Assembly: GCA_050084515.1 (NCBI GenBank)
Contig: CM114271.1
Location: forward strand, 42,594,001 to 42,658,000
Source: Blasia pusilla
Taxonomy: Eukaryota
Reading direction: 5' to 3'
Length of the DNA stretch: 64,000 nt
The position numbers and the translations under genes are program-made. The notes below the pieces were generated by a model. The model searched no databases, was not told the DNA's origin, and worked only from the letters and a program-made list of their open reading frames with translations. Below, in pieces: positions 3,810-42,902 of this stretch. Position 1 is the first letter of the stretch; the number at the start of each line of letters is the position of its first letter.

Positions 3810-6800
3810 GGTGCCCTCTCTAGCCCTCGGTCCAGACGTAACTCAGGATGTAAGCTGAAACACCTAGTGCGTGTGTGACAGTACCTCTCACAATAGTCAT
3901 ACTGATAACCTCCCGGTGTAGCACCATCTCTTCCTCCATGTTGAGGAAAACGTCCATAACCCTAACGGCTGCAATCGCGTTGGTGATGGGCTCCACCGCA
4001 TGCCCAACAAATAATACCTGGCGGCTACTGTTGTTGTTGCGCTGCAGATGATGGCACAGGTCTCTTTGGCACATGCTCTTGATAACCTCCATGTGCTCGT
4101 GGTGCCCGAGTCCTCTCTTGAAATCCACATTGCTGTACTGGTGGTGCATATACTCGTAGCTGCTCTCACCCATAACTCATAGTGGCTACGCTCTCCTCTG
4201 CCATGTTGCGCTCAATATTCTCGGCGGTCCTAAGAACATCTCTCAACGTGGGTGAGGTCTTTATAAGAAGCACCCCCTCCCGCACCGGTGTCCACAGGGT
4301 TTGGTCTAGCATCGCGTACTATGATTGGATAGCCCGGGCCTCTATCACCCCCTGAGTGACGTTAATCAACCTACGCAAGCGAGTGTAGGCCTCAAGAAAA
4401 ATCTCACCCGGGTGCCTCTCGAAGTCATGGATGCTCCACAACTTCTTCGTCCGTACCCCCTAGTAGCTCATCCTCAACTCCGCAAAGAACTCAACCATGG
4501 GGTTGAACCTAGGACGGACCTGATTGGACGGTGTAATTGCTTTAGTGTGAGTCACCCCTCCTAACACATCACTTACGGAAGAGGATGTGGCCTCTCCTGA
4601 CTCGTCCTCCTCATCGGCAAACAACTCAGTCCATGACACATAATGTGGGTCATAGTAGAGTCCCCATGCCTCAACGTCACAGGCATAACTGTGGGAGAAC
4701 TCATGGTAATCGTCCATGGATTCCCCCTCCAAATGGTGGAACGTGTCATTCCATGCTGTAAACGGGTTGAACTCTCTAGAGTTCTTAGCCCGCTGTGAGT
4801 CACACCAACTCCTAAACTCCCCAATGAAGGCTTGTAGCTCTATAGTGCCTACAACACCTGAAAACCTACGCGGTCCTCTATCCTCGTGGTCCATCTCGTA
4901 CGCCCAACTGGTAGGACCACTCAATGTGTGATGCGAATCACTAACACACTCCTCTACACTATCCCCCTCGTCTAAAGACAACACAGAAGGAGATCGAGGT
5001 GGTCTCTCACGTGGAGACCCTCGAAACCTTGCACCACTCCGGGTAAACCCTTCAGAGCTACTCTCAAGTCCACTACCTCGCCTCTGAAAATCCTGAACGG
5101 ACACCGTGATGACCCTCGTACCCCTCTCACACGATCACACTCAATCTTGTGAGTAATCCCTCAATCAGTCAAAGTAAACATGCGGCACTCAATCTACACT
5201 CTCTCACTGAGATGTGTGCTATGCGGCAACAAGCAACCTGGTGCAGCAAATCAACTGATCTTTTGTCTCATCGACAAACCATCCTCAACTCTAGACATCT
5301 CACACAGGTCTATGTCCCCTAAACCCATACATCATAAATGCTCTCAGCATCAACACGAAACCCAATATCCCAAATAACCTCCCAATATCCGAAAATCCCT
5401 AACACATGCGGGGCAAAAGACTAGAATGGGTAACCTGACAATAAATATCGATGTCTCTCCTCAGCAATTGCAAATCTCAACCCCAACTCGGTCGTAAAGA
5501 CAATTCTTCCAAATAGCATGTCGTACTCTCTTGGTACTGATGATGCTCAAATTTCCTCGATGTGCGGTGCAGGTCCACCAGTCCGGTGCGGTACTGGCGG
5601 CACGGAACGACTACAAACGGCACGGCACTCGGGAATAGAGTGTGGCACTCGGAGCCATACCCTCATTGGTCAACAAGACACAATCTGCTCCCAGTGATGG
5701 TGTGGCTCTGTGATCGAGACGGTGCTTTGCGGCCACAAGCGGCACGACGCAGAAATTGGCGGTGTGTTGCAGCTATGGGCGTCACGGCACAGTACTCGAT
5801 CGTCGTCGAGCGGCTACCAATCACAACATAGCAAAGTGGAAAATAAATTGTGACCCATGAATCCAAAAAGGTCACATTGTTAAAGTCACAAGTAAACGAG
5901 TGGCGATGATTCATACAGACTCACCAAATACGGCAGCGGCCGCCCTATCTAGCGATTGGTGACTCGTCATTGTCTTGAACAACGGCGGCGGCAGCGGCAA
6001 ATGGTGGTGGTGACAACTTAGGTCTGCAGCAACTCACGATAGCAGAAGCGGCAACTAACAGCGGCAACGGCAACAAACGGCGATGACAACAACAAGTGGC
6101 GGCGGCAGAGGCGATGGCAAAGGGCGGCGCATGCGGCGCCGCCAACGGCAGCGACTGGTTTAGGGTTTGGAGATTTTTACCCTAAAACTTGGCAATTTAA
6201 AAAATTGGCCACAACTGTCTGTTCGCAGCTCCAATTTGCACATCGTGTGTTGCACAACGTGCACAGCTTCACGATGTACGATAGCGTCAAAAAATATTTT
6301 GAATCAAACGTTCCAATAAAAACTGACAGGGACTGTTGTAAAGCCCAACGTCTCTTTCTCCTACACAAAATTCGGCAGCGCTTCCGCGCTGATTTCTCCA
6401 AAAAAAATGTAGAACCTCTGAAAACACAAATCAGCAAGCTACATGGTGCTCCCAAGAGGGCAACCCGCTCCCATACTCAATTCCTATCATAAATTGGGCA
6501 ACGCTTCCGTGTGCCACTCTCCCGTACAAAAATCTGCAAAGAAAAATAGTAAACTCGCATGCCTCTTGCTCCAGTGAGCACTCCCATGAGCCATGAAGCA
6601 GGGAACACAATCCCCCAACCTGCAACACACATCGAGCAACCAGCGAGCTCCCCCATGAAGCTCTCTCACTCACTCATTCTCTCTTTGTAAAATAAGATCC
6701 AATCTCTCTCAACACCATAGCTCTCAAATGTGTGCACTCTCACATGTCTCTCTCAATGTCAAACCAAACCCACTCTCCTAATGAGAGGCTTGAGTTACAC

Positions 6801-7182
6801 TCACAAGGCAAGGGACCATAGCTCCGCCGCCTTCTACTCTCAAACTCTCTCTCTCTCTCTGTCTTGGAGGTATATCCCCTTCCCTCTCCCAAGCTCACTC
6901 CTCGGTAACCTATGCTTGCAGGTCACCTCCTTGGCTCTTGACCTGCTGTAGCGGGTCAAGGACTACTTCCCAAAGTGAAAAGTCAACTATACTAAAAATA
7001 GAAACTTACTTGAAATAGTAAGTTTCTCCATATGACTCCAAATGAGCCGAAACAAAGGGGAAACCTGCTCTCTCAAGTTACCCATGGCCTCAACACGTCA
7101 TCCTCAACCTCCCGAGAATGTCCTCCAGTATCTCCAAAGGGGCTATAGTAGATCTTGCTGATTTATCCTAAAAACCGTGGCA
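3810..7182 (-). mobile_element. Degenerate Ty3/Gypsy LTR retrotransposon, 5' part (copy B), interrupted inside gag by copy A
   Basis: 3810-7182 is a colinear diverged repeat of about 632-3809. The minus-strand terminus is TGCCACGG at 7182. ORF 4460-5104 (GPRRFSGVVGTIELQAFIGEFRSWCD...FHHLEGESMDDYHEF) is the gag homologue. Homology stops abruptly at 3810, next to the terminus of copy A. Confidence 0.85.
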
Positions 7183-7224
7183 CATATAACATGAATATAT
7201 GCAATTTGATATATAAATATCTTT

Positions 7225-7582
7225 TGACGTATGCCATATGAAGCAAGTGATTTGCATTTTTTTTTACTTCAAACGCCGATTGGAGAAAAATATGAGAATC
7301 GCTCATTGCAACTTGGTCAATTTAATCAAGAATACATGGTTAACCTCTATGCAAATGTAGAGATGCATCGATTATAATGGATTTTTAAAAATTAGAAGGA
7401 TTTGAGAGCTCAATTATATCAAGGTTTAAAGGATGCCATACATCAACATGATATGGATAGTCGAAGGTTTGGGAGATACATTTATATTACCTTATTTTTT
7501 TTCTTGGAGGGCCACATCATATGCATCAATTGTATCATGATGCAATTACAATTAATAGACATTTGGGGAAGCCAAACTACGT
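7225..7582 (+). pseudogene. Helitron Rep/helicase N-terminal remnant
   Basis: Frameshifted translation reads GQFNQEYMVNLYANVEMHRL*WIFKN*KDLRAQLYQGLKDAI...GGPHHMHQLYHDAITINRHLGKP. This matches the Helitron Rep consensus GRLFQQYxVDxYxxIExxRL...LRAELYQGLxDA...GGPRxMxQxYxDAxAIxRxxGKPD. Confidence 0.75.
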
Positions 7583-9364: not shown

Positions 9365-10598
9365 TTATCATAACTAAGACCTTCTTCTTTATTTCATTTT
9401 CTTTCTTTCTAAAAATATTAGGAATTTTGATTATTTTTCTTTCATCCATGCCATGGGCTACTAAACCAGTTTTAGACTCAACCCAAATCTTCTACTCGCA
9501 AAACTCAAGGCCATGGTCTCTTTATGGTCTAGCAAGGAGTCGGAGTGGAGCTCTAGAAAAATTCTATGGGACGGGCGATTGGATTGGTCTTTTAGACTTG
9601 ACGCAAGTCCTCTACTCATAGAAGTGAAGGTCGAGTTCTCTTCTTCAAATATCCACTTTATTATAAAATAAACCTCAAAAGACGACAAAGAAAGGTAATA
9701 ACATCTCAAAAGAGGAGTCAAAAAATGCAGAATGGAATGCAAAGAGAAACTGGCAACTAGCCAATGCAAACACCGACTCAACGAGCTACACGATTGATAG
9801 CCTGAAACAAATCTGACAAGAACACGAGTGGTTGGTCAGACGTGAACGGACCACGAGGCGAGCAACCCCCACCACCTCCGCACGATCTATCAATGCCAAG
9901 ACTTGTGCACGTTGTAAGGCTAGTGAGATGCATTGCCAAAAATAAGTAGTAACTACAGAGAGAGAAGGACTACGAGAAGGGGCAAAGTGATAATTCTCGA
10001 GGGAGTGGTGAACACATGTTTTCAGGAAAGTATCAAAATACACATATAAATGACCGAATACTTCCAGTGCAAAAGGAATAAATCCATCAATTGCATATCT
10101 CACAACATAACTTAACTCCTTGATTCTTGCTGCAACTTCGGCCGCCGAACTTTTGGTATATACGGCTCGACATACCAAATCAACACATCTTGGATCAGCA
10201 ACCACCACATCACCTGGTGTCCGGAATCCACCTCGACACATAACAAGATCAACTCTCCGACGAGAGGTTTCTTGTGTGGTTGAAGATAGGACATAGAGAT
10301 GATTTGCCCAATAATTTTATCATAACTAAGACCTTCTTCTTTATTTAATTTTCTTTCTTTTTAAAAATATTAGAGAATTTTGATTTTTTTTCTTTCATGC
10401 ATCTCATGGGCCACGAAACCAGTTTTAGACTCGACCCAACTCTTCTACTTGCAAAACTCAAGGCCATGATCTCTTTATGGTCTAGCAAGGAGTCGATGTG
10501 GAGCTCTACAAAAATTCTATGGAACCGGCAATTCGGTAAGTCTTTTAGACTTAACGCAAGTCTTTTACTCGTAGAACTCAAGGTCGAGTTATCTTCTT
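9365..10598 (+). repeat. ~280-bp diverged direct repeats (9365-9645 and 10317-10598) flanking a LINE fragment; built partly from a ~115-bp subunit that recurs at about 10815-10895
   Basis: Both copies begin TTATCATAACTAAGACCTTCTTCTTTATTT and end AAGGTCGAGTT(C/A)TCTTCTT. The subunit begins TTTTAGACTC... Confidence 0.85.
9646..10312 (-). mobile_element. 5'-truncated copy (3' end) of the CRE-like non-LTR retrotransposon
   Basis: Colinear with 54652-55312. ORF 9786-10241 (DVVVADP...KELSY...FIPFALEVFG...ISLALQR) is the C-terminal endonuclease region. AATAAA is present on the minus strand near the 3' end. Confidence 0.85.
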
Positions 10599-12393
10599 GG
10601 TCTAACGAAGAAGAGTGTAGGTGGAACTCTACAACAAACGTCCCCCCCCTTCCTCCCTCCCTCCCTCCTTCTCTCCCTCCCAGAAGACATGGCTTAGAGC
10701 TTTCGTGCTTGTCTGAACTATGCTTACTTCAATGACTCACTCGATGACCATAGTTATTCTAATTAGTGCTTGGCAAATACGCCAGCTCACGTGCATCTTG
10801 CTCGACCGATTCGATTTGAGACTCGACCCAAATATTATCCTCACATAACTGAAGATCGAAGTCCCCCTATGGTCTAGAGAGGAGTAGGGATGAAACTTAG
10901 TGAAGTGGTATCAGAGTACACGGTCAAACTGGCAGCAATTAGTGGGCAATTTTGGCATAGGCAATCACCATGGTGAAATACAGAGACATGACAAAAAAGA
11001 GCAAGAAGAAAATTGTGGAGCTTGAGCCACCCCGGCATGGAGGAGGTTTGAGGGACAATGGGAATGAGCCAATAGGCCCAAATTTTCCATTACATTTCAA
11101 GGATCTAGAGAGATCCGACAAAGGCACCGAATAGGATGAGGGTTTCAGAGATGGAAACCCGCCCTATGTAAGATAAGTTCTACATCTGCCTCTCCAAAAA
11201 ACTTCCAAAAAGCTATTCCCCTTTACCTAGCTTATGAAACGACCATTAGGTGAGTAGCTTTTTTCTCTCATGAAAACTAAATGGATCTATTGCTCCATCG
11301 TCTCCTGTTTACTCCTTTCCGTTCTCTCATGACTCTAAACCGTGAAATAATCTCGTCACTCTTGTCGTTCTGACCTAAGGTCTCTTAAAGTTTTTTGACA
11401 GATAATACTGTCCGCATTTTCGTAGGTTACCGTACTACCGTACTTCACACAAAGGGTTCTTCCTTTTCGTAAGCTCCTACTTACTTCCAACATGACATTA
11501 GGGCCAAAGAAAAACAAATCCAGGCGATAAGACTACACCTTTTGGAAACTGTGTCTATATACAAATCTTGTGTGATATCTACAACTGAGTTTTCGTCCTC
11601 ACATAAGCATTGGAGTACTTTCTGTTCACTACTTACTAGTTGGTGCAATGAAAATCATGTATAATTTTGATTTACCCATCCATACTATATAGTTGAATTA
11701 TCACATATAATATCCTCTTTGTTGTAGAAGACTTCCACCCAAGAGCCGAAAGGTCTTGCATGAAAACTCAATATGTCTTAGACATAGATTGGAAAGGTGA
11801 GTTCTTCCACCTCACTTACTTAGTATGGGTTGCAATGGTCGATTCCTGAAGCACTCATTGTTATATCTCTAAACCAGAAAACCTCATCGACAATTGATTT
11901 GTTCGTCCTCCTCACTTAGGAATCGTGAGTAAGCCCCTGACACTTAACATGCAGAAAAAAAAAAGTCGACAGTAACCACATTCTAATTAATGAAGATGTT
12001 GAAAGTGCAAGTTCATATATACATTAAAAGCAGAAACAAACTTACAAATTGTGAAATTATGAGTATTAAACAACTATTGTACAGCTTCCTTGCTTGCAGC
12101 CAATTACAGACAATGGTATTCTACCTTTAGATTCACATGGAGGGCACAGGATATTCTCTATTGCACTGAGCTACCTCACTCTGGAATTCTCTCGAACGTC
12201 AAATGATGAGTATCTAGGTAAACCCTAAATAGAGCTTTTGTGCCATCGGCAATTCTCCCACTATGCCCCCAAAAACTTAATAAGTCATTTTCAGATCATT
12301 TGTTCATAGCTGAAATAAGACTTGTTCACATTATTTTGTTATTTAACTTCTTTTGTTACCTCTACCATTAAACCGTTATTCATTACATCTAGC

Positions 12394-18072: not shown

Positions 18073-19553
18073 TGTCGCGCCAGGCTCGCACATAGCCACT
18101 CCCGCCAGGTCTCCGCAAAAAGTGACCAGTGAAAAGTACGTAAACATCCAATCGCAGACACTCGTATGACAACAGCCACGAGCGCGAGAGACATCCCGGA
18201 GTCCGGGGTCGAGAATCGCTTTAACGAGGCCACTAGCTTAATCACTGCGCGCATCGTCGTCACTTACAGCGTAATTACCGACTCACACTCCCCTCGCATT
18301 CACGATAAACGCGATCGACAAGATTCGCACGCCAAATTGTTGCTGATCAATCGCGCCTTCTCCTACTCCACTCTCCATCCCGCTCCCCGCCGAACTCATC
18401 GCCCCGCCTTCCGCATCATCTCCTCACCATCTTCTCGCGAATTAGCGACAATAATGCATCCACTCACTCGAATTGCGCTCGCTGCCAACAACAAGAAACT
18501 CTTTCTCCCTCTCTCTCTCTCTCCCCCTCACAACTGGGCACCCCTTTCCTCCCCTAGGCCCCGCTGCGCTGTCTGGCTGGCGCGTCTCGAGTCGGCAGCA
18601 AGCGGAAAAGCGGACACATGACGCCTACTTCCGTCTACCTCAGTTAATCCGCGGAGGGAGTAGTTACCCAGTTGGCGCGTCCGGAGGCGCGGTGTGCAAG
18701 CAGACGTGGAGACGCGATATTCCGCGCTTCGCCAGGTAACTCCGTAAGTGAGTCCAGCGTGGAGTTACCGAGCCATACCGACGGGGGATCTACTAGCCGG
18801 TACTGTACCGAGCATTATAATTGCCTGGACGAGTCGACCCTCTACAGACAGTGTTACCTGCGTACGGCTTCGGAGCCGTCGATCGGAGTGACGTGGGAGG
18901 ACTACGAGTCGTCATCCGATCAGGTGTACGTGTCAACCTTCCGCCGTAGCGAATGCAAGGGGCCGTATCATTCATTTCTTTGGCCATCTTAACGCCTTAA
19001 CACCTTTTTGGTTTTTATTTTAAGTCATCGGTGTCATCCACATAATATACATATATTTTTATATAATTGAAAGAGGATGGAGTTTGAAGAACACGTGTCA
19101 TGGTTCTCTTATCATGACACATGTATTTTTTGGCTTCGTCCGGTGATGACACATGTCATCTTTAACAAAAGAATTAGTGGATTATCACATACACTTAAAA
19201 TCATAAATTTAATTAATATAATTCCCATAGGTATTTTCATTTTCAACCGGGCATTATGCTAGTATTTATTATATATCAATATGTCTTAGTATGAACCCCA
19301 CTGAAATGATAAAATATTTTTGAAAAGAATTTATTTCCATATGTCAAACGAAGGAATAGCCTCTATATTACTAGCAAGAACCATTGGACAAAACATTCAT
19401 AATCCCATTTTTCCTTCACCATGAAAATAGGTACTTGACTTCCCTAGAATATTCTCTTTTCCACACCATTAGAACCAATTAGTTATTTAACATTGAAATA
19501 GTACACATATTATTGTTGCAAATGGAGCTATCTCAATTTTTCATTGTGATGTC

Positions 19554-19921
19554 TGTCATGACCATACGGATTCTGTCGTAGAGTATAGTGTGCTAGTAGA
19601 GGCCATACCTTATGTAGGGCCGCAGTGTCTAGGTAGAGATGCGATTTCATACATAGGGTTGGGGGTTATTCAGTTGAGGGTGACTTTTCCAATAGGGCCC
19701 GCTCTTAGGTTGGAGGATATAAGGTGGAGTGCACTCAAAGAACAGTCAGTTCTTTGAGTTGAGCATGTTGCGTTGGGAGTTAGCCTTGGTAGTGAGTAGA
19801 GCTCTTGGTTATGGTGTTTCCCGCAAGCTTCGACCTAGATTCTCCCATCGTGGAGTGGGTTTGGCTCGATTGTATGTGATTCTATATGTGTTTTATGACA
19901 GTAGGTCTTTCACAGATTTCA
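19554..19921 (+). repeat. Terminal repeat segment A1 (promoter/R/U5-like part of the LTR)
   Basis: Near-identical to 28584-28947 (about four substitutions and one small indel cluster by eye). Begins TG, ends TTTCA, and contains TATAA at 19718. Confidence 0.95.
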
Positions 19922-19933
19922 CTCAAAGAACTG
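19718..19933 (+). promoter_or_regulatory. LTR TATA box, predicted transcript 5' end (about 19747) and self-complementary primer-binding site (19921-19933)
   Basis: TATAA at 19718-19722. CAGTTCTTTGAGT at 19747-19759 is the exact reverse complement of ACTCAAAGAACTG at 19921-19933, which starts at the last base of A1. No TGG-initiated tRNA PBS abuts the repeat end. Confidence 0.7.
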
Positions 19934-21434
19934 GAGTAGATCGATCGTAGCTTTGATTGTAGGTCAGTAGGATCTAGTTAGGGCTGATTGTGTACTCATC
20001 CGTGGATGTTCGTGGCTTGTGGCCTATGTTGGAGGTAGGAATATGGTGCGTGGATGGCTGGGAAAGAAGCGCCTTTTTGAGAGCTTTCCGACGTGCTTTA
20101 GATCGCCGGATTTCGTCAAGGGAGTTGGAAGTTATCAAGGATTGAAGATTCTGGTTCGTGTTCGACGGTTTTCTGATGAGGAGAGCTTGGAGTGCGGAAG
20201 CTTTGTTGAAGTTCATCCAGATCGGGTGAGAGGTTCATGTTGCTACTTGTATTGTGATCTCATGTGAAACTATCTGCTTAAGTGTGTGGAGCGTTGCGGA
20301 TTTCTGCGTGCATGAAATTGGGCGGAAGCACTGTCGGATTTGCGATTCTGGAGGTGTATGGACAGCAAGTTTGTCTGATTTTTAGCTCGGAGTACAGAGC
20401 TTGGTTGTAGCTGATTTTTTGTGGAGAGATAGCTATGGTGGTAAATTGAATTTTGGTTGAAATAGATTCAATTTTGGTTGAGGATTTGTGGAGTAATTGC
20501 TGATCGAAATTTTGCAAACTCGCTCAAGGTCTGGGCTATGGTGGACAGCGGATCGGAGGGGCTGGTTGGTTGTTGACTCTTTCATTGTTGGAGATGCCTA
20601 TACCGTTGGGGGCGCCCTGGTTGGGCCTCTCTCCATAGCGAAGCATGGCGAAGCGTGGCGATAGGGGCGATAGGGGCATGTCTCGAGGCTTCGAGGCAAC
20701 TCGAGGTAGCTCGGGGCGAGTGGGCGTGAGAGGCGGAGTAAGGAGCAAGGAGCAAGCAAGCAAGCTTGCTTGCTTGGGCGTAGGGCAATTTTTGCAGGAT
20801 TTTTGATTTGAGTGTTGCATAACTGGTCACCCATCTTTGGGCTATTCTGCCTGGAAGACGCTTAACTGCAGAGTTCTTAACTATGCCAGTGTACACACTT
20901 GTGTAGCTCATTTGGTACTGTTCGGAGAGGTGTTAGGCGCTTTATGCATCTCAGGTTTTTGGTTGATGGACCTCTAGTGCATAGTACGGTGTAGCCTCTC
21001 CATGCAGGTGATATTTTCAGGTGTTGCGAGTTCGACTAGCACATCATTGACCCGCGGCGGAGTAGCTATTGCGTTAAAATTGTGTGGTGGGTTTTGTGGA
21101 TTCAGGGGGTGCCACATTTGTGGATTGTGTAACCTTGATTGCCATTTGCGATTGGAGGGTTGTCGTTGGACTTCCTATGTTTGGATCCCCTCCATCGTTG
21201 CTTCTTGCTTGCGCGCCCATTGTTAGGGTTGACGCTGATTTCCAGAGCAGTGTTACTCCTGTGTGCTACCGGTAGTGAGGCTTGAGTGATGACCAGTAGA
21301 CCGTGGGAGGCTTCTAGTGGTGATGATAGGTTAGGTTGCCTACATCCATAGTTAATAGAGCTAGAATAGTATAGCGACATCGACGTCACTTGGTTACTTA
21401 GTGGTGATAATTTGGTGGTGGTGCGGTATCGGCG

Positions 21435-22960
21435 TTGGTCATCACGGAGTTGTCGCGTGGTCAGGTTGGGGACCGTGGTGCGGACAGTGGTGGTTTCACA
21501 TGGAGTGGATTTAGGTATCGGCTACCTTTTCCACTTCCAACGGTTGATGTAGAGGAGGACGAGGGTGTTCCAAACACCGAGTCTTCTACGTTGTTATCGA
21601 GTGTTGCAGCTCCATTGATTTGGGACATGGACGGGATATATGGGGCCATGAAGGGCCCACGATGATACTCGGGTGCAGTGGGCACCATTGAGTTGGAGGA
21701 CTTCATGCAAGAGTTTGATACGTGGTGTGATATGCAGATGTTGCGGAACGCCACTTTGTTTACACCCTTCTTGGCTTGGAAGGGGTTGTTTCAGCACTTG
21801 GAGGGACCACCCATGGATGATTACCATGAGTTTAGGAAGGACCGTGTTGCTCAGATTGAGGCGTGGAGACAATATTGGTCTTCATGCTATGTGTCTATCA
21901 CCCATGGTGGTATTGGTAGTAATGCTCCTACTATGCCAACCAGCCCGACGTTGAGTGGTACGAGTACGAGCCGGAGTGGGGGTACCAGTGGAGGTACCCA
22001 TGGAGGTACTAGTGGAGGTACTAGTGCCCCACCATCGTTTAGCCCGGTTGCAGAGTTCTTCAAGAGGTTGAAGAAGAACTATCAGGGAGTGAAGACAGAG
22101 AAGTTGAGGAGTCTTCAAGAATTTGAGCGAAAGACTGGTGAGAGTCTTCGTGAGGCATACACTCGTATGCGACGCTTGATTTCAGACCATTGCCTTCATT
22201 TGTTGCCCCGCAGCAAGGACAGTCATGTTGGACATGTGGAGGTGATCATGTTAGGAAGTTTTGTCCCCAAGAGGATGGGAGACGGACTTTGGAGGATGGG
22301 CCTCAGTCGGCCCCTACTCAGTATGATCATTGCGGGAGACCAGGTCATCCTCGAGAACGTTGCTTTGATCTTCATCCAGAGTTGAGATCAGGCCGCGGCC
22401 GTGGTGGAGTAGCTCCGAGAGGCCGAGGTGGTAGAGGTGGTAGGGGTGGTAGAGGTGGACCAGTGGTTGGAGAGCCTACGGTGGCTACCCCTACCACTAC
22501 GACAGAGTCAGCTATAGCTGCCAGATTGAGCTTGATTGGAGCAGAAGTTGGCTACTATGGCTGGTATCCAACATAGATCAAGTTCGGGAGCAAGGGCTTC
22601 CACCTCTTATGGAGGGGATGATCTCTCTTATATGGCGAGTGCAGCACAGGTTGAGGCATCGGCTGTAGTTACGAGAGGAGCCACTCGAGCGTCAGAGCCA
22701 CGTGGTGCTAGTGTAGAGTTGGACCCACAGAGGGGTGAGGCTGGGAGGCAAGCTAGGCTTCCCCAGTCATTCTTGTTGTCTGAGGTGCTTAGGACTCCAT
22801 CCATGGTTCCTATGCAGCCTATTGAGCCGACAGTGGGGATTGAGGCATCTACATCGCGTGTAGTAGACACGGATGCAAAGATCAAGACAAAGATTGCGGA
22901 TGGCAACTTCAGTGTTGGGATCCCCATTGTTTTCGGCCACGGAGCTGATGGCTTTAGGAG
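21435..22960 (+). pseudogene. Gag region with two CCHC zinc knuckles and an RGG-rich tract
   Basis: ORFs 21435-21665, 21678-22385, 22190-22576 and 22536-22964. Motifs: GESLREAYTR, CWTCGGDHVRKFC, (Y)DHCGRPGHPRERC and GRGGRGGRGGRGG. Confidence 0.85.
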
Positions 22961-23179
22961 TTGACTTAGCTCCTGTATTTCAGCTAGCAGCCACGTTGTG
23001 TGAAGGTGGGGGTGTTACTGCTACACGTGGTGAGGTGGATGAGGGTGTTGCGGTGGAGCAACCCTCTATGTCAGGTGTAGTATTGAGAACCAGTGCTACT
23101 TGGCAAGCAGCAGCGGCGAAGATGGATGCATTACCAGCCCGGCCAGCCATTGATCGTGAGAGGCTTACACCTGGTGTAT

Positions 23180-23634
23180 GTATGTTGGACAACCGAAGTG
23201 GGATATTCCGATTGGTGAGTCCTACAGGACAGGTGTATAGACCAGATAGAGTCTTGTTAGACTTTGGTGCCCAACCTTTGATGTTGGGAAAGGCGGCATG
23301 TATTGGTTTGGGTATTCGGAGGTCAGAGCTTGAGCCTTGCCCATTCCAAATTCAAACATCACTTGGAGGAGCCAATGATAGGTCTCAATTCATGACACAT
23401 GAGAAGTTGTCTGTACAGTTGAGACCAGATCATGCAACTGATAGCTCCCAGTTGGGAGTACCTCCAGTGGTCACATCAGCCGAGTCATATGATGTACTAG
23501 TTGGAGGAGCAATATTGTACCCGATGGGTTTTCAAATGGATTACTGGACTGAGACAGCGTCTTATAGACCTGGTTGGCAGTCCGGGGATGGACGTATCAG
23601 CCAAGTTCCTGTGAGATTTATTTATGGGGCTTGA
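23180..23634 (+). pseudogene. Retroviral-type aspartic protease domain
   Basis: VLLDFGAQ at about 23251-23274 (D-S/T-G motif with S changed to F) and downstream YDVLVGG in ORF 22873-23634. Confidence 0.8.
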
Positions 23635-23985
23635 CCAGGAGGGTCTTCCCCAACGATGTTAGCATCTGTGGCTGGTTTTAGTGGAGTAGTCACTTGGCCA
23701 GGAGACTTTTTGGAGGGTAATGTTTCTGCTATGGATTCTCCTGTGCATGAGGAGGTAGAGGAGGTCCCTAGTTTTGCAGCAGTGGCATGCTCATCGTTGG
23801 ATGTTCCACTTTGGAGTTCAGGCGGTGCACTACGGCAGGAGGCTGATCGCCTAGTGCAGGAGGCTTGGTGTGAGGCTATTATATCTCACGAGGAAGAGGA
23901 GGCCCCATGGCAGACTCCTACTTCTGGTCCAGTTGGATTATCCTCTTTGGATACTACATCCATTGTATGGCAGTATCCGTTGGAG

Positions 23986-24915
23986 GGCATTTGTGTGTTA
24001 GATCTCTTTGTGGGATTAGCACTAGTTTGGCTGTAGTGTTGCAGGCCGGTATTCCTGTGCGGAGATACGTGTATATGGAGCGAGATGAGACGGCCCAGAG
24101 AGTGTCATCCCGACATATTAGTCAGTTGATGCGGAGATATCCTGAGTTGTTGCCGCCATGAGCTATTCGTGGGTACCAACGTGCTTTGCCGTCACACATT
24201 GCATTGTTGGGCGCGCAGGACCTTGAGAGGGTTGGTCATGTGGATTTGGTGATTGCTGGATGGCCATGTCAGGGTCATACACGTGCTGGTCGTGGTGAGG
24301 GATTACACGACCCTAGGTCTCGATTGTTTTGGGAGATGTTACGGGTGTTACGACATCTTAAGGTTCATCAGGCACGTGCTCCAGCTTACATTCTGGAGAA
24401 TGTTCCATTTTTGGGTGACACTCGGACCCGGATGATGGCGAGTGTTCATGAGGCGCGGTCTTGGATTGGACCAGCGGTGTTGTTAGATGTAGCGCAAGTT
24501 GGCTCGCGTGCACATCGTCCACGCTTGTGGTGGACAAACTTGTTGCCTAGGGAGGTTCTACGTCGAGCATATGATGCAGTGCAGCAGGATCCTTGCCTTA
24601 CAGTGGATAGTATATTGGATAATGGGTGACTTTCTCAGGTGGTGAGGGTTATTGATCAATCACCCATGGTAGTGGTAAACCGTGTGGGCCAGCCTAGGAT
24701 GGCACTACCCACATTTGTGAGTTTTCCCTCGTCACAAGCATACAGGGAAGGTGATCTCGGGCTTGTATGGGATTCTCATGTGTGACAGTTGGTGGAGCCT
24801 AACGTTGATGAGAGAGAGCGTGCAATGGGATTTACTACTGGTGTGACAGCGGTTGCTTCCATTTCTGAGGCTTCACGACGTCATGTGTTGGATCAGGCCA
24901 TGGACCTGAATTGTT
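23986..24915 (+). pseudogene. DNA cytosine-5 methyltransferase domain (DNMT3-like) inside the retrotransposon polyprotein
   Basis: Motifs appear in order: I VLDLF-(frameshift)-GI at about 23995-24018; II YVYMERD; IV DLVIAGWPCQG (PCQ at 24264-24272); VI YILENV (ENV at 24396-24404); VIII AHRPRLWWTNL (about 24510); IX ERERAMGF; X RRHVL(D)QAMD (about 24876-24905). Three in-frame stops. Confidence 0.92.
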
Positions 24916-25259
24916 TGACTTGGATTTTGAGTCTTGGTATGGCCGAGCAACGCCGACTTTGGACTATGTCTGTGGGTCTTCCACCCCTTGTAATGAGCTC
25001 GATGGCTACCGGGATGGTAGAGGCATCGGCTGGGGGCGAGGAGAGTAGTATTTTACATCCTTGGAGTAAATGGGATGTAATGGCTAGGCATGTGAAGTTG
25101 GTTGCTCATGCTGGTGGAGGAGTTATTTGCTCAGATGATGGTGTAGCTAAGGGTGTACCATCTTGTGAGGGGGTTGCGTAGCAGCCAATGGCATCATCCT
25201 CTCCCTCTAGTGTGCCACTGGAGGAGACGTGGGAGCCATTACTTAGGCCCAAGCTTACG

Positions 25260-26100
25260 GGAGGTGAGAAACGACGCTTGACACAGTTCCTACGTGCTGA
25301 TAGGAGTTGTTTTGCCTTTAGCATGAAGGAGTTGGATGCTCTGGTTGGACCCGGTATACGGATTGATTTGGCTAGTGATACGCCAATTGTCCGTCGTCCC
25401 TACCGATATAGTGATATGGAGAGGGACCTGATTCAGAGTAGGACGTTGGACCTTTTGGAGGCTGGATTAGTGGAGTTGTCGCATGGAGAGTATGCATCAG
25501 CCACTGTCATGCCTACTAAGAAGGATGTGCATGGCAACTACACAGATAGGCGGATGTGTGGAGATTACTGTCTTATCAATCGGCACACCAAGGCTGATAG
25601 GTATGCCATGCCTACACCTGAGGAGATCTTTGATGTAGTGGGACATGCAAAGATTTTCAGTACTTTGGATCTTCGGGCAGGATACCATCACTTGCCGATT
25701 CGAGAGAGTGACAAGGCCAAGACAGCATTTTGGGGTGTCAACTCTCATGGCAAGGATTGTTTGTACCAGTGGAAATTCTTACCCTTTGGGTTGAAGAATG
25801 CACCTACCGAGTTTCAGAGAGTGATGGATATGATCCTAGTAGGGTTGGATTTTTGTTCGGTGTTACATTGATGATATCTTGGTGTTCAGTAACACGGTGG
25901 AGGAGCATCAGATACATTTACAGATGGTGTTTGAGCGGTTGAAAGCTCATGGTCTATGTTTGCATCCAAGAAAGTGTAAGTTCTTCCATGAGGATGTTGA
26001 GTACTTGGGTCATGTGATCTATCTAGGTGGTTTGGGAGTTCAGCAAGCAAAGATGGAGGCTATTACACTTATTCCGCGTCCGGTAGATGTGAGTAGAGTT
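25260..26100 (+). pseudogene. Reverse transcriptase (Ty3/Gypsy)
   Basis: RRMCGDY, FSTLDLRAGYHH, KTAF, LPFGLKNAP, and YIDD at 25864-25875 just after a frameshift, then KCKFF and YLGHV. Confidence 0.95.
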
Positions 26101-26289
26101 CGAGCATTCTTGGGATTGGCGAACTACTATCGGAGGTATGTGAAGGGATTTAGTGCTATGGCAAAGCCTTTGAACCAATTGTTGAAATCAGATCAAGAGT
26201 GGCACTGGGGAGATGATCAGGAGAGAGCTTTTGTGGAGCTTAAGGCCCAGTTGGTGGCGGCGCCTATCTTGAGGAGACCTATCAAAGGG

Positions 26290-26600
26290 CGCCCATTTCA
26301 ATTACACACCGATTGGAGTAGGTTGGGACTTGGAGCGGTGTTGACACAACATGATGATGAGCACATGGAGTTTGTGGTGGCCTATGCAAGTCGTTCAAGA
26401 ATGCATGAGTCGCTATAGTTCATATGAGGGAGAGTGCTTGGCAATAGTGTGGGCTGTGGCACACTTTAGGTGTTACTTGTTTGGCACACAGTTTACCCTT
26501 GTTACTGATCACCAGCCGCTCAAGTGGTTGATGGAGTCTGACAAGCTTACAGGGAAGCTTGCATAGTGGGCTCTTATCTTACAGGAGTATGACTTCCAGG
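26290..26600 (+). pseudogene. RNase H (Ty3/Gypsy)
   Basis: FQLHTDWS..GLGAVL, VAYASR, YSSYEGECLAIVWAV..F..YL.G..FTLVTDHQPL; frameshift near 26400. Confidence 0.92.
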
Positions 26601-27039
26601 TGGTACATAGACTTGGAGTTGCCAACCTTGATGGTGATGGGTTGATTGGGAACCCCTGTACTAGCCAAGAGGATACAACTGGGGCTAGATGGCATGGCGA
26701 GGTTTATGAGGAGATGGTGCCAGGTTGGCATGCATCCGCCTTTTTATGTTGGTTAGGGATGGACTCTAGTATGGAGGACCACATGATATCTTACTCTAAT
26801 CAGAGGGTAGATGGCCAGCCTTCAGATCCTAAGGTTGGAGATGGTGGTACGGATCAGCGTGACATTCATGATGATGCGTTGGTGTTGGAGTTCCTACGGA
26901 CTAGTAGAATGCCGGGCATAGTGAGTGCCAAGGAGCCAGACCGTGTTCTTCAACGTGCTAAGAGGTATCGATTGGAGGGAACACATATTCTCCGTGTGCG
27001 GGAGGATGGTAGAGTACGAGTAGTGCCGCATTTGGCTCA

Positions 27040-28110
27040 GAGAGAGCACATTGTGCGACATGCCCATGAGGAGTTGGGACATTTTGGGGTAAAGCGTACA
27101 TATAGCTTACTCCTTGGTCAGTATTGGTGGCGTGGCATGCATACTCAGGTGCAGCAGTTGGTGTCATGTTGTATGGTTTGTGACCGGGTGAGGGCATCAT
27201 TCAATGCCCCTACACCACAGTTACACCCCTTGCCTATTATGGGGTTGGGTTACCGTTGGAGTGTGGACTTTGCGGGACCATTACCGTTGACTATACGACA
27301 TCATCGTTACGTGTTGGTGATGGTGGAGCACTTCTCCAAGTGGATTGAGTTGGTGGCATTACCTGACAAGGCAAGTGAGGGAAAGGCGTATGCGTTTCTT
27401 GATAGAGTGCTTAGTCATTTTGGTGCACCAGGTGAAGTTCTGACCGATCAGGGTACAGAGTTTCAGGGTGAGTTTTAGGTCTTGTGTGACAAGGCGTTGA
27501 TTGATCATTGGACCACGTCTTGAGATCATCCAGAGGCGGATGGTTTAGCTCAGCGTGTGGTTCAGACGGTGAAGAGGGCATTGCGCAAGTATGGCCTACA
27601 GAAGGGGCATCTTGGAGACTGGGATATTCAGTTGCCATGGTTAGCCATGGGATATAGGTTCAGTCGCCAAGCATCCTTGGCTTCCTTCTCACCTTATTTT
27701 CTATTATACGGCCGAGATCTAGACTTGCCAGTAGCAATTCGTCGGGAGTCTAGTGAGGTGGTGAACCTTGATGACCCATAGATGTGGATGAGAGTGTGTT
27801 CTCAGCGGGCAGAGCTCTTTCGGAGAGTTATGCCAACAGCCTTTGAGAATCTTGCCATTGCTCAACACAGGGATACGTTGCGGTATGCAACCATTCGGGG
27901 TGGAGGTTATCGACCATCGATTCGTAGGTTCCATATGGGGGACTATGTCTATTTGCAGCGGATTGCACCGACAACGTTGGATGTGACGCCAGGCCGCACT
28001 ATTTTACGAGTGCGCGAGGTGTTAGCTTCTGGAGTTCTCATGTTGGAGGGTCGTGATGGAGATGTTTGGAAGGACCATGTGCGTAATTGTGCGTCATGTC
28101 ATCTTCCAAA
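27040..28110 (+). pseudogene. DDE integrase
   Basis: HHCC zinc motif (HEELGH...CMVC), WSVDFAGPL, VEHFSKW, VLTDQGTEF, ADGLA(Q)R with the catalytic E changed to Q, and SPYFLLYGR. Confidence 0.92.
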
Positions 28111-28162
28111 TGTGAATGGTACTGTTGACCCAAGCTTAGCCATGATACGTGCTAGCTTGAGG

Positions 28163-28300
28163 TGCATGTTGTGTGGGTCTGCTGGTAACGCACCCCGTAT
28201 GTTGGTGTGTGATCGGTGTTCTAGGGGTTGGCACATTATGTGTTTGACTCCACGTATTGATGTTGTTCCTACTGGAAGGTGGGTTTGTCCTCGATGTACT
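28163..28300 (+). pseudogene. PHD finger (C4HC3) at the C-terminus of integrase
   Basis: CMLC-x11-CDRC-x4-HIMC-x12-WVCPRC at the end of ORF 27782-28303, followed by the terminal stop. Confidence 0.9.
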
Positions 28301-28454
28301 TAGGAGAGGTAGATGACTTGATCTTTGCATGATATGGATTACATAGATGTTCGACTAACGATGGGGCAACCTAGCACCCGGCCTTCTGATTTGTGCACCC
28401 AAGAAGGTGTATAGCATGTAGTAGATGTATAGGGCTACTTGGGAGTTAGAGGGA

Positions 28455-28477
28455 CCTAACCGGTTAGGGGGGCGAGT
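28455..28477 (+). promoter_or_regulatory. Polypurine tract preceded by a 14-bp palindrome
   Basis: CCTAACCGGTTAGG (28455-28468) overlaps AGGGGGGCGAG (28466-28476), immediately before TGTGG at 28478. Confidence 0.7.
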
Positions 28478-29053
28478 TGTGGTACACTTGTGTTTGTGGA
28501 TGCTCTCGTTTATGTTATGTATGTATGTGAGTATGGTATGTCAGCGATGTATGTTGTATGACGATGTGGATTCGCACGATAGCTGTCATGACCATATGGA
28601 TTCTGTCGTAGAGTATAGTGTGCTAGTAGAGGCCATACCTTATGTAGGGCCGCAGTGTCTAGGTAGAGATGCGATTTCATACATAGGGTTGGGGGTTACT
28701 CAGTTGAGGGTGACTTTTCCAATAGGGCCCGCTCTTAGGTTGGAGGATATAAGGTGGAGTGCACTCAAAGAACAGTCAGTTCTTTGAGTTGAGCATGTTG
28801 CGTTGGGAGTTAGCCTTGGTAGTGAGTAGAGCTCTTGGCTATGGTGTTTCCAAAGCCGACCTAGATTCTCCCATCGTGGAGTGGGTTTGGCTCGATTGTA
28901 TGTGATTCTATATGTGTTTTATGACAGTAGGTCTTTCACGGATTTCAGTTGTGGTACACTTGTGTTTGTGGATGCTCTCGTCTATGTTATGTATGTATGT
29001 GAGTATGGTATGTCAGCGATGTATGTTGTATGACGATGTGGATTCGCACGACA
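28478..29053 (+). repeat. 3' terminal repeat block B1 (28478-28581)-GC-A2 (28584-28947)-GT-B2 (28950-29053)
   Basis: B1 and B2 are 104 bp and differ at two positions. A2 matches A1 at the 5' end of the element. Confidence 0.95.
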
Positions 29054-30174
29054 TGTCATCTTCACAAAGCACATTTATTGTTCTTTTGATTCTCTTACTT
29101 GTTTCCCACAAAGATACTTCCTTCCATTAGCCTTGGAAGGAAAGAAAAGACTTGAGTTGGATTATTAAGACCTAACTAGTCGTAAGTCCCACAAGGTCAA
29201 ATACGCAAAGTTTTCCGCCCTTGTTTGGTATCCTATGCCTCCCTTATTTGCATCACAACTTCTTTGGTTAGCCTATCCATCAACCCTCCACCAATCTCCC
29301 CATATAACTCACCTTGTTGAAGTGCAGTCGCTAATTCATAGTAATTATTGAAAGAGTGTCCCACAAGATATTCAAGCTCACAACTATACATACCCCCAAA
29401 AAATAACATCATCAACTCCTAATTTCAAATGATGGTTGAGTACATCCTTGTTAGCCTCGTACAAACTCAATGACATGGTGACTTGTGATGAGTCTCATAG
29501 TTAATGTTGCCTTGTCTTGACTCCCCCTTGAATCTCTATTTCCTATATTTCATGTCTAAATGTCTCAAAATGCCATGTCTATATGTGTCCCTTCTTATGA
29601 CTAATCTCAAAGCTCCCCACTCATCTTGGCTACTTGTGGTGTCCTATCCGCCTCACCCCTTAACTTAACTTGAATCAAGACTTACTCCCCCGTATTCATT
29701 AATCGGCTAGTTAGTCATACTCCCTGCCCACAACCACATTATTTACCTCATATATCTTAAGAGAGTTTTAAGATGCACGTGAATGGTTCTTTTGATTATT
29801 TCTATGATATATGTATTGGCATCCCCATTCGTCTTGATTTCTCTTACTCTCAAAACCATATGCATATCATTGCCTTTGGATGACTTGAGGGAGCATTAGG
29901 CTCCTAACAATTCCCAAGTCTTGCAAGTAGACTTGTTTAGGTTTTCATTTGGCAATAACAATGAGGTTTCTTATCCCTTTGAATCATGATCATTATTCAA
30001 CTTTGATTTACCAAAAATCATAAATGTGTCAAACTTAATTAACTATTTGCAACAAGATTACCACCTTTTTCTCCTCTTCATTTTTTTGTTCATTATTGAG
30101 TATCCTAATTATATCTTTTTGGAAAAAAAAACTTTGGGATATCACTATTTATGATCTCAAATTAACCGAACTAT

Positions 30175-31152
30175 AGGGACCTCCGAAATCTACTATATTG
30201 GACTTCGTTCGGGTTTCGAATCCCAACGTTAAAACTCGTGATCCATTTCATGCCCTTCAGTCTCCCAATGGCACCCCAAAGTGGGGTTCGAATCCCAAGC
30301 ACTCTTGAGACCTTCTCCCTTACTAGTATTTATGGGGTTCTTTGCCCTCTCCCTAACTTTGGAGAAGAGACGTTCGTGCCCCTCTTTTTGGCCCTGAACC
30401 CAACTTCCCATGCAATAATTTTTGGGAATTTTCTGAGTCTGTGCTTGTGCGTTTGCTAAGATCTTTGGTGCGTTGGAACCGACTTTGCAGAAGCTTTGCA
30501 ATGCTATATTGGACTTTGTTCGGGTTTCGAATCCCAACGTCAAAACTCCCGATCCATTACATGCCCTTCGGTCTCCCAACGGCACCCCAAAGTGGGGTTT
30601 GAGTCCCAAGCACCCTTGGAGACCTTCCCCCTTACTAGTATTTATGGGGTTCTTTGCCCTCTCCCTAACTTTGGAGAAGAGAAGTCCGTGCCCCTCTTTT
30701 TGGCCCTCAACCCAACTCCCCATGCAATCATTTTTAGGAATTTTCTCAGTTTGTGCTTGTGAGTTTGCTAAGATCTTTGGGTGCGTTGGAACCAGCTTTG
30801 CATCAGCTTTGCGATGCTATCATAACTGTCCCAAATTCATCTTGGGACTAAAAATTATGGTCCAAATTATAATCACAATCCCAAGTGCTAATGACGTTCC
30901 AAATCCGGTTCTCACCTCTTTGGCAACCACTCTTCCTAAATTTGACTCCTCTCAAATCTTGGTTCACGTTTGGTTCAAGTTTCCTAGTCTTGACCATAGA
31001 CATATGAAACGCTCAACCTTGTTTGTGTCTCATCTTTTATGTCTCTTGCATCTCTTCCGAGAGACCACTCCAATGCGCAAGCCATCCTAGCATGAGCCTG
31101 CTAGAGTTCCGATGTTCCACATGGCGCTTGTTTGGTTATGAGGTTCACGACA
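30175..31152. repeat. LTR-like remnant with an internal ~311-bp tandem duplication (30193-30503 and 30504-30820)
   Basis: CTATATTGGACTT(C/T)GTTCGGGTTTCGAATCCCAACG recurs at 30193 and 30504. 30858-31152 is homologous to 8458-8743 and ends TCACGACA. Confidence 0.75.
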
Positions 31153-41184: not shown

Positions 41185-42902
41185 TGCGCGGATATTCCGG
41201 TAGAAAATCGCGTTCCAGCAACATAAGACAGCGCCGCTCCACGGCGGATCACGCTCCCACACTCAACAATTCAGCTACGATCGGCACTCGGGAAGCACGC
41301 CACCGACATCGTAAACACCTCGGCAGCGACTCCGAAGTTCCCGCGGACAACCGAAATTGGTTCCCAGACGAAAACGCACTCGGCTAGCGGAAATAACCGA
41401 TTCTTGTCTACCTCAGACAACAAAGTCGAGGCACGACAATTAATACCACGCGACGGCGAGTCGCCCCTCAAGACACAATGTGCTCGTACTTGAACAGCAA
41501 TCGAGCGAACAGTGGCTCGATCAGGAACAAGGATATCTTAACAGTACACGGGCAGCCCACGGCGATTCCAGTCTCGTAGTCTTCCTCCTCCGCACGCACC
41601 TACCTATACGCCTGCGTACATATATATACAAATATTTACATCTATATGAGTGTATGTTGCAGGGGACACCCTTGGTGATGGTGCCTGCCTGCGTGCGCGA
41701 TGATCAGACCTCGGCGCCACGGAATCATGAAATGAATGCGGTAGAGAATAGTCAATCCAGTGAGCGCAGCGTAAGCCCTTTCTCCTCCCCGCGCAACGGA
41801 CGACGGTTCTTCATCGTCTACAATCCAGCGCCGTGCGGGTCAATGGCGGGTCGCGCTCGCTTCTGTCGTCCGTCCATTGGTGCTTCGCCGAACGAACGAA
41901 TTATTCCTCCTCTCAGTCGCCAGAAATCAGACACACAGGCAGCAGAGAGAACAAGAGCGAGCGCTTCCCCGTCCCCGGCCGTGCAATTAAACTCTACCCT
42001 CTCGCCATTCGCGAAACCTAAAAGCCAACTCTGCTGTCAGTGCCGGCATCCCGCATCCCGTTGGGATCGGCTCTCTCTCTCCCCGTCTTTCGCTCGCTCG
42101 CGGTCGGGACTCTGGAGCAAGCCGCACAAGGAAGGAGTGGCGCAAGAATCGTCGCGTGGAGCGAGGGAGTACTTATGGCGCAGACATCGCGAAAGCTCGA
42201 AGTTGCGATGCGCTTGGCTGCGGCTGCGCTGCGGTGCATTATTTATTCCACCCGCCCGACACACTGTCAGGGTCGGAGGGTGAAGGTCTGGACGGCCGTC
42301 ATGAGGTGCAGGAACTCGCGCAGGACGGGACGGTCCGAGAGAGAGACTCAGGGAGAGGTGGTCTCGATTCCTGAAATCGCATCGGGATTTGAACGGCTCC
42401 GCGTGCGAATTCTGCGGTCGTTCGATCTTTTCGTCACTCTGCACCTCGCTCCTCTGGGCACATGAGGATTCCCATGCCGAATGTCGCCCGCGCCTCCGTC
42501 CGTCGCAGCTTTTCAGTCAGGCTTCTGCGGTGGTTAAACCTTTCTTTCTCCCCTTTTCCTTTTCCCTCCTCTTTCGTTCATTCATTCTTTTTTCGTCCCC
42601 GGCTTTTCGATCGCATTTCCACCGCCGCATCGACCGCATCGTCCCCGAAATGCCTTCTATGATTGGCGCCTTCTCATGACGCTGTACACCGATCTTGCAA
42701 AGGAAGTGCACCTCGACTCAATCCCATCCTCCCTCCCTCCCTCCCTCCATCCATTCGTTCGTTCGTCCGCCCGCTCCGTCCGCAATGCAGTCTCCCGCTT
42801 AATCCGTCGCTTGATTCCTCACGCGAGGAATCCCTCTTCGCTCGTATCGAAGCCCGCCCATTTCTCCCGAGATCAACGCGGGCTCCACCATGCATTATTA
42901 GT

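Follow-up and report, generated by a model that had tools for sequence, protein, structure and literature searches.

A split-repeat retrotransposon in Blasia pusilla

The DNA analysed here (henceforth referred to as 'the window') is a stretch of 64,000 nucleotides (nt) from Blasia pusilla (assembly GCA_050084515.1, contig CM114271.1, positions 42,594,001 to 42,658,000 of the forward strand) that contains, at 19550-29057, a Ty3/Gypsy-type retrotransposon with a DDE integrase. Its long terminal repeats (LTRs) are split into two units, A and B, and its parts stand in the order TGTC-A1-internal-B1-GC-A2-B2-TGTC, a layout which is the normal genomic form of a whole clade of such elements and not an accident of the window locus. 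All features of the element lie on the plus strand, and direct reading of the sequence makes the borders base-exact. The left flank (...attgtga) is followed by a 4-bp target-site duplication (TSD), TGTC, at 19550-19553, and the same four bases are found at 29054-29057, directly after the element. A1, the 5' repeat (19554-19921), starts TGTCATGACC (TGTCATG, an integrase-type end) and ends GATTTCA at 19921. At the other end of the internal region lies B1 (28476-28581), with which the reverse-transcribed repeat begins (5' part of U3); it ends CACGATA and is separated from A2 by a 2-bp spacer, GC (28582-28583), at the centre of an internal inverted-repeat junction between B and A. A2 (28584-28947) starts TGTCATG and ends TTTCA, and B2 (28948-29053), which sits head-to-tail on the A2 end, begins with GT (28948-49) and TGTGG and ends CACGACA, the right integrase-type end. 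A repeat finder and self-BLAST of the window aligned A1 with A2 as a direct repeat (19553-19921 and 28583-28947; 97.6% identity over 369 nt including gaps) and B1 with B2 (28475-28579 and 28947-29051; 104 of 105 positions identical). The B-A-B end has a tandem periodicity of 472 bp; self-BLAST revealed no second copy of the element's family elsewhere in the window. The original prediction, made from the letters of the window, had described the A1-internal-B1-A2-B2 layout with a CA-GT-TG joint between A2 and B2, a GC spacer missing at the outer ends and a TGTC duplication, all of which direct reading bears out.

The internal region carries, in order, a weak gag-like open reading frame (ORF) fragment (21666-22385; Retrotrans_gag, E 0.0044, below the Pfam cut-off), a fragment of a C-5 cytosine DNA methyltransferase (DNMT) inside pol and upstream of the reverse transcriptase (RT) (24162-24629; PF00145, E 9e-11), RT and RNase H spread over two frames (25182-26418; RVT_1, 1.6e-11 and 7e-15; RT_RNaseH_2, 2.2e-17), and an integrase ORF shortened by a frameshift (26567-27478). 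The latter holds an H2C2 zinc finger and a catalytic core and matches Integrase_H2C2 (6.8e-16) and rve (1.1e-10), as expected from the DDE integrase that had been predicted. At the C-terminus of the integrase, in the place of the chromodomain of chromoviruses, lies a PHD finger (27782-28303; PF00628, E 3.6e-10). Pfam found no tyrosine recombinase (PF00589, Phage_integrase) in the 18 ORFs of at least 100 amino acids of the element, and a protease had no match in this copy but is present in the relative P0048. Because the plus-strand coding pieces fall in several frames, the copy is decayed; with repeats that are 98-99% alike, it appears from its sequence to be a fairly young one nonetheless.

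A search with the integrase ORF returned 125 longer relatives, 120 of them listed. Among the matches listed, the closest named relatives come from liverworts and mosses (Calypogeia, 80%; Riccia, 70%; Marchantia and Sphagnum, partial), followed at 40-45% identity by the Klebsormidium nitens proteins P0029, P0045 and P0065, of which P0045 has a DNMT domain; proteins of Closterium and Tetrabaena are also present. Nearly all of the 120 listed relatives contain rve, most contain PHD and several contain DNA_methylase, and PF00589 occurs in none of them (0/120). The clade to which the element belongs is one of Ty3/Gypsy-type retrotransposons of streptophyte algae and bryophytes that carry a DNMT in pol and a PHD finger after the DDE integrase.

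The layout recurs in three families

The original prediction had suspected a family trait and proposed that further copies be collected. A protein-profile scan of metagenome contigs gave 80 related loci with 39-82% integrase identity, and each locus was sorted by self-BLAST and by BLAST with ten reference A and B units. (An exact two-anchor DNA pattern for B had 0 matches in the metagenome contigs, and 4 pattern matches in viral contigs included no relative.) The 80 loci fall into three families, which we refer to as WIN-like (after the window element, WIN), L036-like and L063-like, and between which the integrases are only ~40% identical. The DNMT domain lies upstream of RT in 38 of the 80 loci and the PHD finger is found in 71, and both recur in all three families. 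In the ten reference units B measures 98-185 nt and A 273-364 nt, B always being the shorter of the two.

A B-A-B arrangement downstream of the integrase was found in 32 of the 80 loci. These represent at least 28 distinct insertions, since flanks are common to L014 and L020, L028 and L032, L067 and L068, and L070 and L073; the B2 unit of L074 is internally deleted. The full A-internal-B-A-B layout is visible in seven distinct insertions besides that of the window (L002, L028, L036, L063, L068, L071 and L074). At the 5' side, where 16 distinct ends could be read (L001 and L002 being the same), the flank is followed directly by A in 16 of 16; neither B before A nor A-B-A was seen at any of them (0/16 each). 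Canonical copies of the form BA-internal-BA, which would have pointed to a single aberrant integration at the window locus, were absent from the 80 related loci, and solo A-B units were absent from both the window and the 80 loci. A single insertion (L053, L055 and L056 being the same) shows B-A without B2. It is because of the 32 B-A-B loci, the absence of BA...BA copies and the perfect TSDs at eight of 11 insertions, described below, that we regard the layout as a trait of the whole clade.

In one contig, that of L068, a reverse-oriented B-A-B block of the L036-like type lies at 1577-2054, ~220 nt upstream of an L063-like element, a sign that members of the two families may have inserted into or close to each other.

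Integration ends and the internal B-A junction

In all three families TGTCA(T/G)G at the start of A and CA(C/T)(G/A)ACA at the end of B form a 7-nt imperfect inverted repeat, and the outer ends of all copies read TGTCA...(G/A)ACA. Both ends are visible in 11 insertions, the window included, and eight of these are flanked by perfect 4-bp TSDs (TGTC in the window, AAGG in L002, CATA in L028, TTTG in L036, ACCT in L063, CCAC in L074, and TACA in both L003 and L019), where chance would give a perfect match in ~1/256 per element. Of the remaining three, L068 and L071 match at three of four positions and L062 is unmatched. TG..CA at the start of B and the end of A, which the original prediction had taken as the limits of the functional LTR, is confined to the window's family and missing in L036 and in L063 and L068, and therefore these are not conserved integrase ends.

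The two copies of B differ consistently in what follows them: B2 has (G/A)ACA as its last bases in every case and adjoins unrelated DNA, whereas after B1 there are always two bases, NN, and T(G/A)TCA. The internal B1-A2 junction is therefore (G/A)A(C/T)A-NN-T(G/A)TCA, an inverted repeat whose halves flank a 2-bp spacer and whose commonest form is GACA-GC-TGTC, and the spacer is always missing from the outer ends. In 25 distinct insertions NN is GC in 11 (and in the L032 allele), AC in nine, AT in three, AA in one and TC in one (and in the L028 allele); the variants are mostly transitions from GC, which is how methylated DNA is expected to decay. It had been predicted that the B2 allele, joined through GC to the start of A, would give the perfect palindrome GACAGCTGTC. 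The sequence agrees, and this exact palindrome is found at the B1-A2 junction of L002, L014/L020, L050 and L058; a contig from another organism (run X7) reads GCACGACAG before 19553, which gives the same exact palindrome at its B-A junction. Taken together, the loss of the spacer, the CA ends and the 4-bp TSD read as the signature of a DDE integrase, which would have cut 3' of CA, with loss of 2-nt overhangs, and used a 4-bp staggered cut in the target.

Reverse-transcription signals and the joint between A2 and B2

The promoter, R and U5 are likely located within A1. In all copies a G-rich polypurine tract (PPT) adjoins the start of B1; in the window it is AGGGGGGCGA (28466-28475), directly read just upstream of B1 and followed by GT and then by TGTGG at 28478. 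The primer-binding site (PBS) adjoins the end of A1, as had been predicted. It is, however, not of the transfer RNA (tRNA) type but complementary to a stretch inside A: the window PBS, ACTCAAAGAACTG (19921-19933), pairs over 13 nt, without mismatch, with 19747-19759. The relatives have complements of this kind as well, of 17 nt in L002, of 13 nt and different sequence in L036, and of 11 nt and a third sequence in L063 and L068. A thus contains a matching complement for each of the three PBS sequences, and it is this covariation that argues for self-priming by the RNA's own 5' end. A TATA-like motif (19718-19722 in the window, 29 nt upstream of the primer-complementary stretch) precedes that stretch by 29-31 nt in WIN, L063 and L068 (30-31 nt in the latter two). 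In the window element the stretch forms part of a perfect hairpin with an 11-bp stem (19733-19759; A2 copy at 28763-28789), the left arm of which has the same sequence as the PBS, and the right arm of which, extended by 2 nt to 19747-19759, can pair with the 13 nt after A1; we propose 19747-19759 as the putative RNA 5' end and self-primer. L028 has the hairpin in degraded form; in the L063-like family nothing comparable was seen. A tRNA-type PBS was considered and rejected, the bases after A1 not starting with TGG and the TGG at 19932 lying at a variable distance in relatives.

Since the PBS follows A and the PPT precedes B, BA and not AB is the unit expected to be copied twice, and the expected product of reverse transcription is a complementary DNA (cDNA) of the form BA-internal-BA. 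Measured against this cDNA, with its BA unit, the genomic copy is permuted, and at the joint between A2 and B2 the cDNA end set by the PBS would be attached head-to-tail to the one set by the PPT. This joint is mostly exact between copies. Exceptions are L005, where it holds a 19-nt insert (2669-2689) made of local filler and the last PPT bases, 17 nt of which partly repeat a stretch ~30 nt upstream; L009, with one extra base; and the L063-like family, in which an extra AT is present in some copies and not in others. Junctions of retroviral 2-LTR circles, where cDNA ends have been joined, are likewise heterogeneous, and the heterogeneity seen here argues for a joint that arises from completed cDNA and is not copied off RNA. 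Routes to B2 by reverse transcription only (a second plus-strand primer at the B-A junction, or rolling synthesis on a circular intermediate) were also considered and rejected, as by reasoning they yield A-internal-B-A or one-repeat concatemers and never a joint between the end of A and the start of B.

Copy number and transcription

Reads from three DNA runs and one RNA run (X22) were compared with 19501-29100. This region is massively repeated, with a summed word depth of 17,000-120,000 in X1 compared with 0-6 in the flanks, and of 2,500-7,300 in X4 compared with 0-1.6 in the adjoining flank bins (19.7 in the last bin, 29901-30300). Sense RNA covers the element at a depth of 19-160, and the family is therefore both highly repeated and sense-transcribed in organism A. 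Differences between the window copy and other copies over the same region are dominated by transitions in X1, X4, X7 and X22 (in X1, G>A 174, A>G 157, C>T 144 and T>C 106, compared with 15-39 for each transversion), which fits the decay of methylated DNA. Some X22 reads skip parts of the element, namely 26822-27831 (1008 nt, 16 reads, with nine other letters between), 21707-27912 (6204 nt, five reads) and 28429-28524 (94 nt, seven reads), and these skips could reflect deletion derivatives among the expressed copies or spliced RNAs. A read joint skipping the whole element, as expected from an empty site, was not among the 15 of 36 joints listed.

A model for the permuted insertion and its rivals

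The model that we consider best, and on balance probable, is that an end-joined intermediate (a 2-LTR circle) is opened by the integrase at the B-A palindrome. The RNA would start inside A1 and its first 11-17 nt would pair with the site adjoining A1, in a self-priming reaction similar to that of Tf1; with the PPT before B1, reverse transcription would then give a linear cDNA of the form BA-internal-BA. Joining of the two cDNA ends would create the A2-B2 junction, the product being a 2-LTR circle or an equivalent end-to-end joint. In the 5' repeat, the palindromic B-A junction would look to the integrase like two DNA ends lying side by side; the enzyme would cut 3' of CA on both strands to leave 2-nt 5' overhangs that are later lost, and insert the unit with a 4-bp stagger. 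The inserted unit would be permuted because, unlike in the retroviral LTR-LTR joint, the palindrome sits inside the repeat. In its widest form the proposal would be that the whole green-algal and bryophyte DDE-integrase clade uses end-joined cDNA as its obligatory integration substrate, its integrase linearising this DNA at palindromic ends inside the LTR and inserting a permuted genome, such that the topology of PAT and Ngaro elements is reached with a DDE enzyme; here we find the arguments for and against about evenly balanced. Thus, of the earlier suggestion that the family integrates a circular intermediate, the part that concerns a clade-wide trait is supported, and the mechanism is plausible as one that we infer.

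Several points weigh against the model, in which both the closed-circle substrate and the integrase cut are read back from the product. A 2-LTR circle has two identical B-A junctions, and symmetric cutting predicts A-B-A-internal-B as often as the layout found, which is at odds with its absence from all 16 distinct 5' ends; the test is weak, since 15 of the 16 ends come from metagenome contigs, in which assembly can collapse loops. In 13 loci A-internal-B or internal-B-flank is followed by unrelated DNA after B, with no A2 or B2, and three of these (L003, L019 and L062) also carry A at the 5' end. They could stem from 1-LTR circles that were cut, from recombination between B1 and B2, or from a collapse of A-B-A units or of the assembly. 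An assembler of metagenome contigs can skip a B-A-B or A-B-A loop, which weakens two observations, the A-internal-B class and the lack of A-B-A; such a skip cannot, on the other hand, create the B-A-B class. With regard to priming, a PBS complement of at least 8 nt is absent in L071 and that of L028 lies only at another place, both copies being heavily mutated. The RNA start predicted in A2 lies at 28777, and the only strong pile of read ends in X22 (28745, sense strand, 28 molecules), 32 nt upstream, does not fit it; the pile may mark a true end of the RNA, or the edge at which reads of diverged copies were clipped. Finally, the reading frames are broken in every full-length copy examined, that of the window included, so that no copy can be claimed as active.

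The rival that comes closest dispenses with the closed circle: the integrase would cut the palindrome of the 5' repeat in linear cDNA, this junction being the one nearest to a DNA end, as B is always the shorter arm, and insert the new ends, and the old cDNA ends would be connected later, either through the host's end-joining repair or because RT switches templates end to end. Topology, TSD, spacer loss and a variable A2-B2 junction all follow from it as well, and it could explain why only one permutation is seen (A-B-A in 0 of 16 5' ends). Against this, it needs a chromosome break that is held together until repair, and the absence of A-B-A for which it would account may be an assembly effect. 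We think this route unlikely, if deserving of serious attention. Alternatively, the layout could be made by reverse transcription itself, as has been proposed for PAT, Ngaro and DIRS elements, with an RNA that runs from A1 to B2 and a B1-A2 junction that serves as template for completing the ends; the cDNA would then be linear from the outset, with the start of A and the end of B as its termini, and the integrase would trim only 2 nt. The repeat layout is indeed identical to that of the tyrosine-recombinase retroelements in the legend of Fig. 1e of PMC5890265, and the 2-bp spacer corresponds to the dinucleotide that integrases usually trim. We nevertheless hold this to be distinctly improbable: the PPT adjoins the start of B1 and the covarying PBS the end of A1, which makes BA and not AB the unit copied twice, the extra bases at the A2-B2 junctions of L005 (PPT-derived and filler) and L009 are what joined finished cDNA ends would give, and no priming site was found beside the end of B or the start of A.

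Three further readings are effectively excluded. That the window records a single aberrant event, in which a 2-LTR circle of an ordinary Gypsy family was captured at a break by microhomology, had some appeal from the window alone, where A opens with the TSD sequence TGTC and the TGTCAT after B2 repeats its first six bases; this has become very hard to maintain given at least 28 other distinct insertions in three families with the same layout, no canonical copy, and TSDs unrelated to the element ends elsewhere (AAGG, CATA, TTTG, ACCT, CCAC, TACA). Equally remote is a tyrosine-recombinase retroelement (PAT, Ngaro or DIRS) misread as Gypsy, since the split direct repeats A1...B1A2B2 that are the hallmark of that group (Fig. 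1e legend, PMC5890265) are here accompanied by 4-bp TSDs, TG..CA-type ends and the Gypsy order of RT, RT_RNaseH_2 and then H2C2/rve, and no recombinase is present in the 18 ORFs of the element or in the 120 listed relatives, nearly all of which have rve. Least credible of all is a misassembly of the window at 28478-29053. A tandem period of 472 bp is prone to assembly slippage and the read contigs that match the locus are short, but the same layout is found in 32 contigs of other assemblies and has been reported for Klebsormidium, and the target duplication fits the outer ends.

Relation to known elements

For textbook LTR retrotransposons and retroviruses, linear cDNA is integrated, its ends are fixed by PBS and PPT, and circles count as dead ends. 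The clade described here shares with canonical Ty3/Gypsy elements (Metaviridae) the order of RT, RNase H and H2C2/DDE integrase, the PPT, a PBS after the 5' repeat, inverted termini of the TG..CA type and the 4-bp TSD. It differs in lacking a pair of whole LTRs, in having integrase ends inside the repeat made by reverse transcription, and in having the PPT- and PBS-defined ends joined internally; the ends used for integration are thus different from those made by reverse transcription. With PAT-like, Ngaro and some DIRS elements it shares the topology A1-internal-B1-A2-B2, that of a 2-LTR circle opened inside one repeat. Those elements have a tyrosine recombinase and are not known to make a target duplication, whereas the clade here has a DDE integrase, TGTCA...GACA ends and 4-bp TSDs and is not a member of that group; it offers a DDE counterpart to their unexplained split repeats.

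The spacer of the retroviral LTR-LTR palindrome is 4 bp, compared with 2 bp at the B-A junction, and the retroviral palindrome is the joint of the cDNA ends, so that cutting it restores an ordinary linear genome, whereas the palindrome of the clade lies 98-185 nt inside the repeat. The integrases of PFV (PMC1180852) and HIV-1 (PMC1905944) cleave the palindromic LTR-LTR junction of 2-LTR circles. By analogy, judged on sequence, the integrase of the clade may likewise cut an internal palindrome of abutting ends to give 3'-processed ends, and the elements would be an example from nature bearing on the contested proposal that circle junctions can serve integrases as substrates.

In Tf1 the first bases of the transcript pair with the PBS, and the elements described here resemble Tf1, Sushi and Tcn1 in that the PBS beside the 5' repeat can pair not with a tRNA but with what is presumably the 5' end of the element's own RNA; they differ in having a PHD finger and no chromodomain at the integrase C-terminus and in having split repeats. 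Self-priming has been predicted for the moss Tcn1 clade (PMC6317226). In the available part of a plant-wide survey the term PHD does not occur. Troyka, which the original prediction had named for comparison, proved not to be relevant: it is like the present clade only in being a Gypsy-like lineage with unusual termini, belongs to animals, and has 3-bp TSDs, CG..CG termini and ordinary LTRs, the available text giving no hint of split repeats (Kojima 2025, PMC12440569).

The closest precedent is KnitGypsy-Dnmt3 of Klebsormidium nitens, which according to the legend of Fig. 4c in de Mendoza et al. 2018 (PMC5890265) has a DIRS-like repeat structure (A-coding-B-A-B) and Gypsy domains. It resembles the window element in both the repeats and the DNMT domain within a Gypsy pol, and differs in family and host, the best matches of the window element being liverwort and moss proteins at 70-80%. 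The main text of that paper mentions neither 'target site' nor 'circular', and accordingly gives no description of TSDs, end sequences, the palindromic junction, the priming mode or a mechanism. Beyond this 2018 legend our literature search, which left subscription journals and Repbase Reports mostly outside its range, found no account of TSDs, junctions or mechanism for a split-repeat Gypsy element. The layout is thus already in print for one alga, and what is new, as far as searched, is its generality in bryophyte-type families, together with the 4-bp TSDs at integrase-type ends, the palindromic junction that loses its spacer, the self-priming site and the variable joint of cDNA ends. Annotation tools that depend on LTR pairs would miss such elements because the repeats are split. 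CAG/CTG sites lie in the palindrome, and the elements encode a PHD reader as well as a DNA methyltransferase, so that a link between cDNA methylation and the choice of ends is open to testing.

Other repeats in the window

Two tandem units of ~3.3 kb, 76-85% alike, occupy 663-7182 on the minus strand. The original prediction had named the units at 3809 and 7182 as relatives of the element; they do start TGTCACG and TGCCACG, as it had stated, but the only link to the element is a 165-nt blastn match of 68% to its gag-like part, and their ORFs have no Pfam match; relatedness with a shared layout is not supported. Further repeats of the window (9397-10885, 54643-55165, 30193-30780 and 42898-43188) comprise a 300-nt stretch that recurs 45 kb apart at 88% identity, a 311-nt tandem pair and three tandem copies of 94 nt, and the arrays near 9.4-10.9 kb have spacings of 120 and 953 nt.

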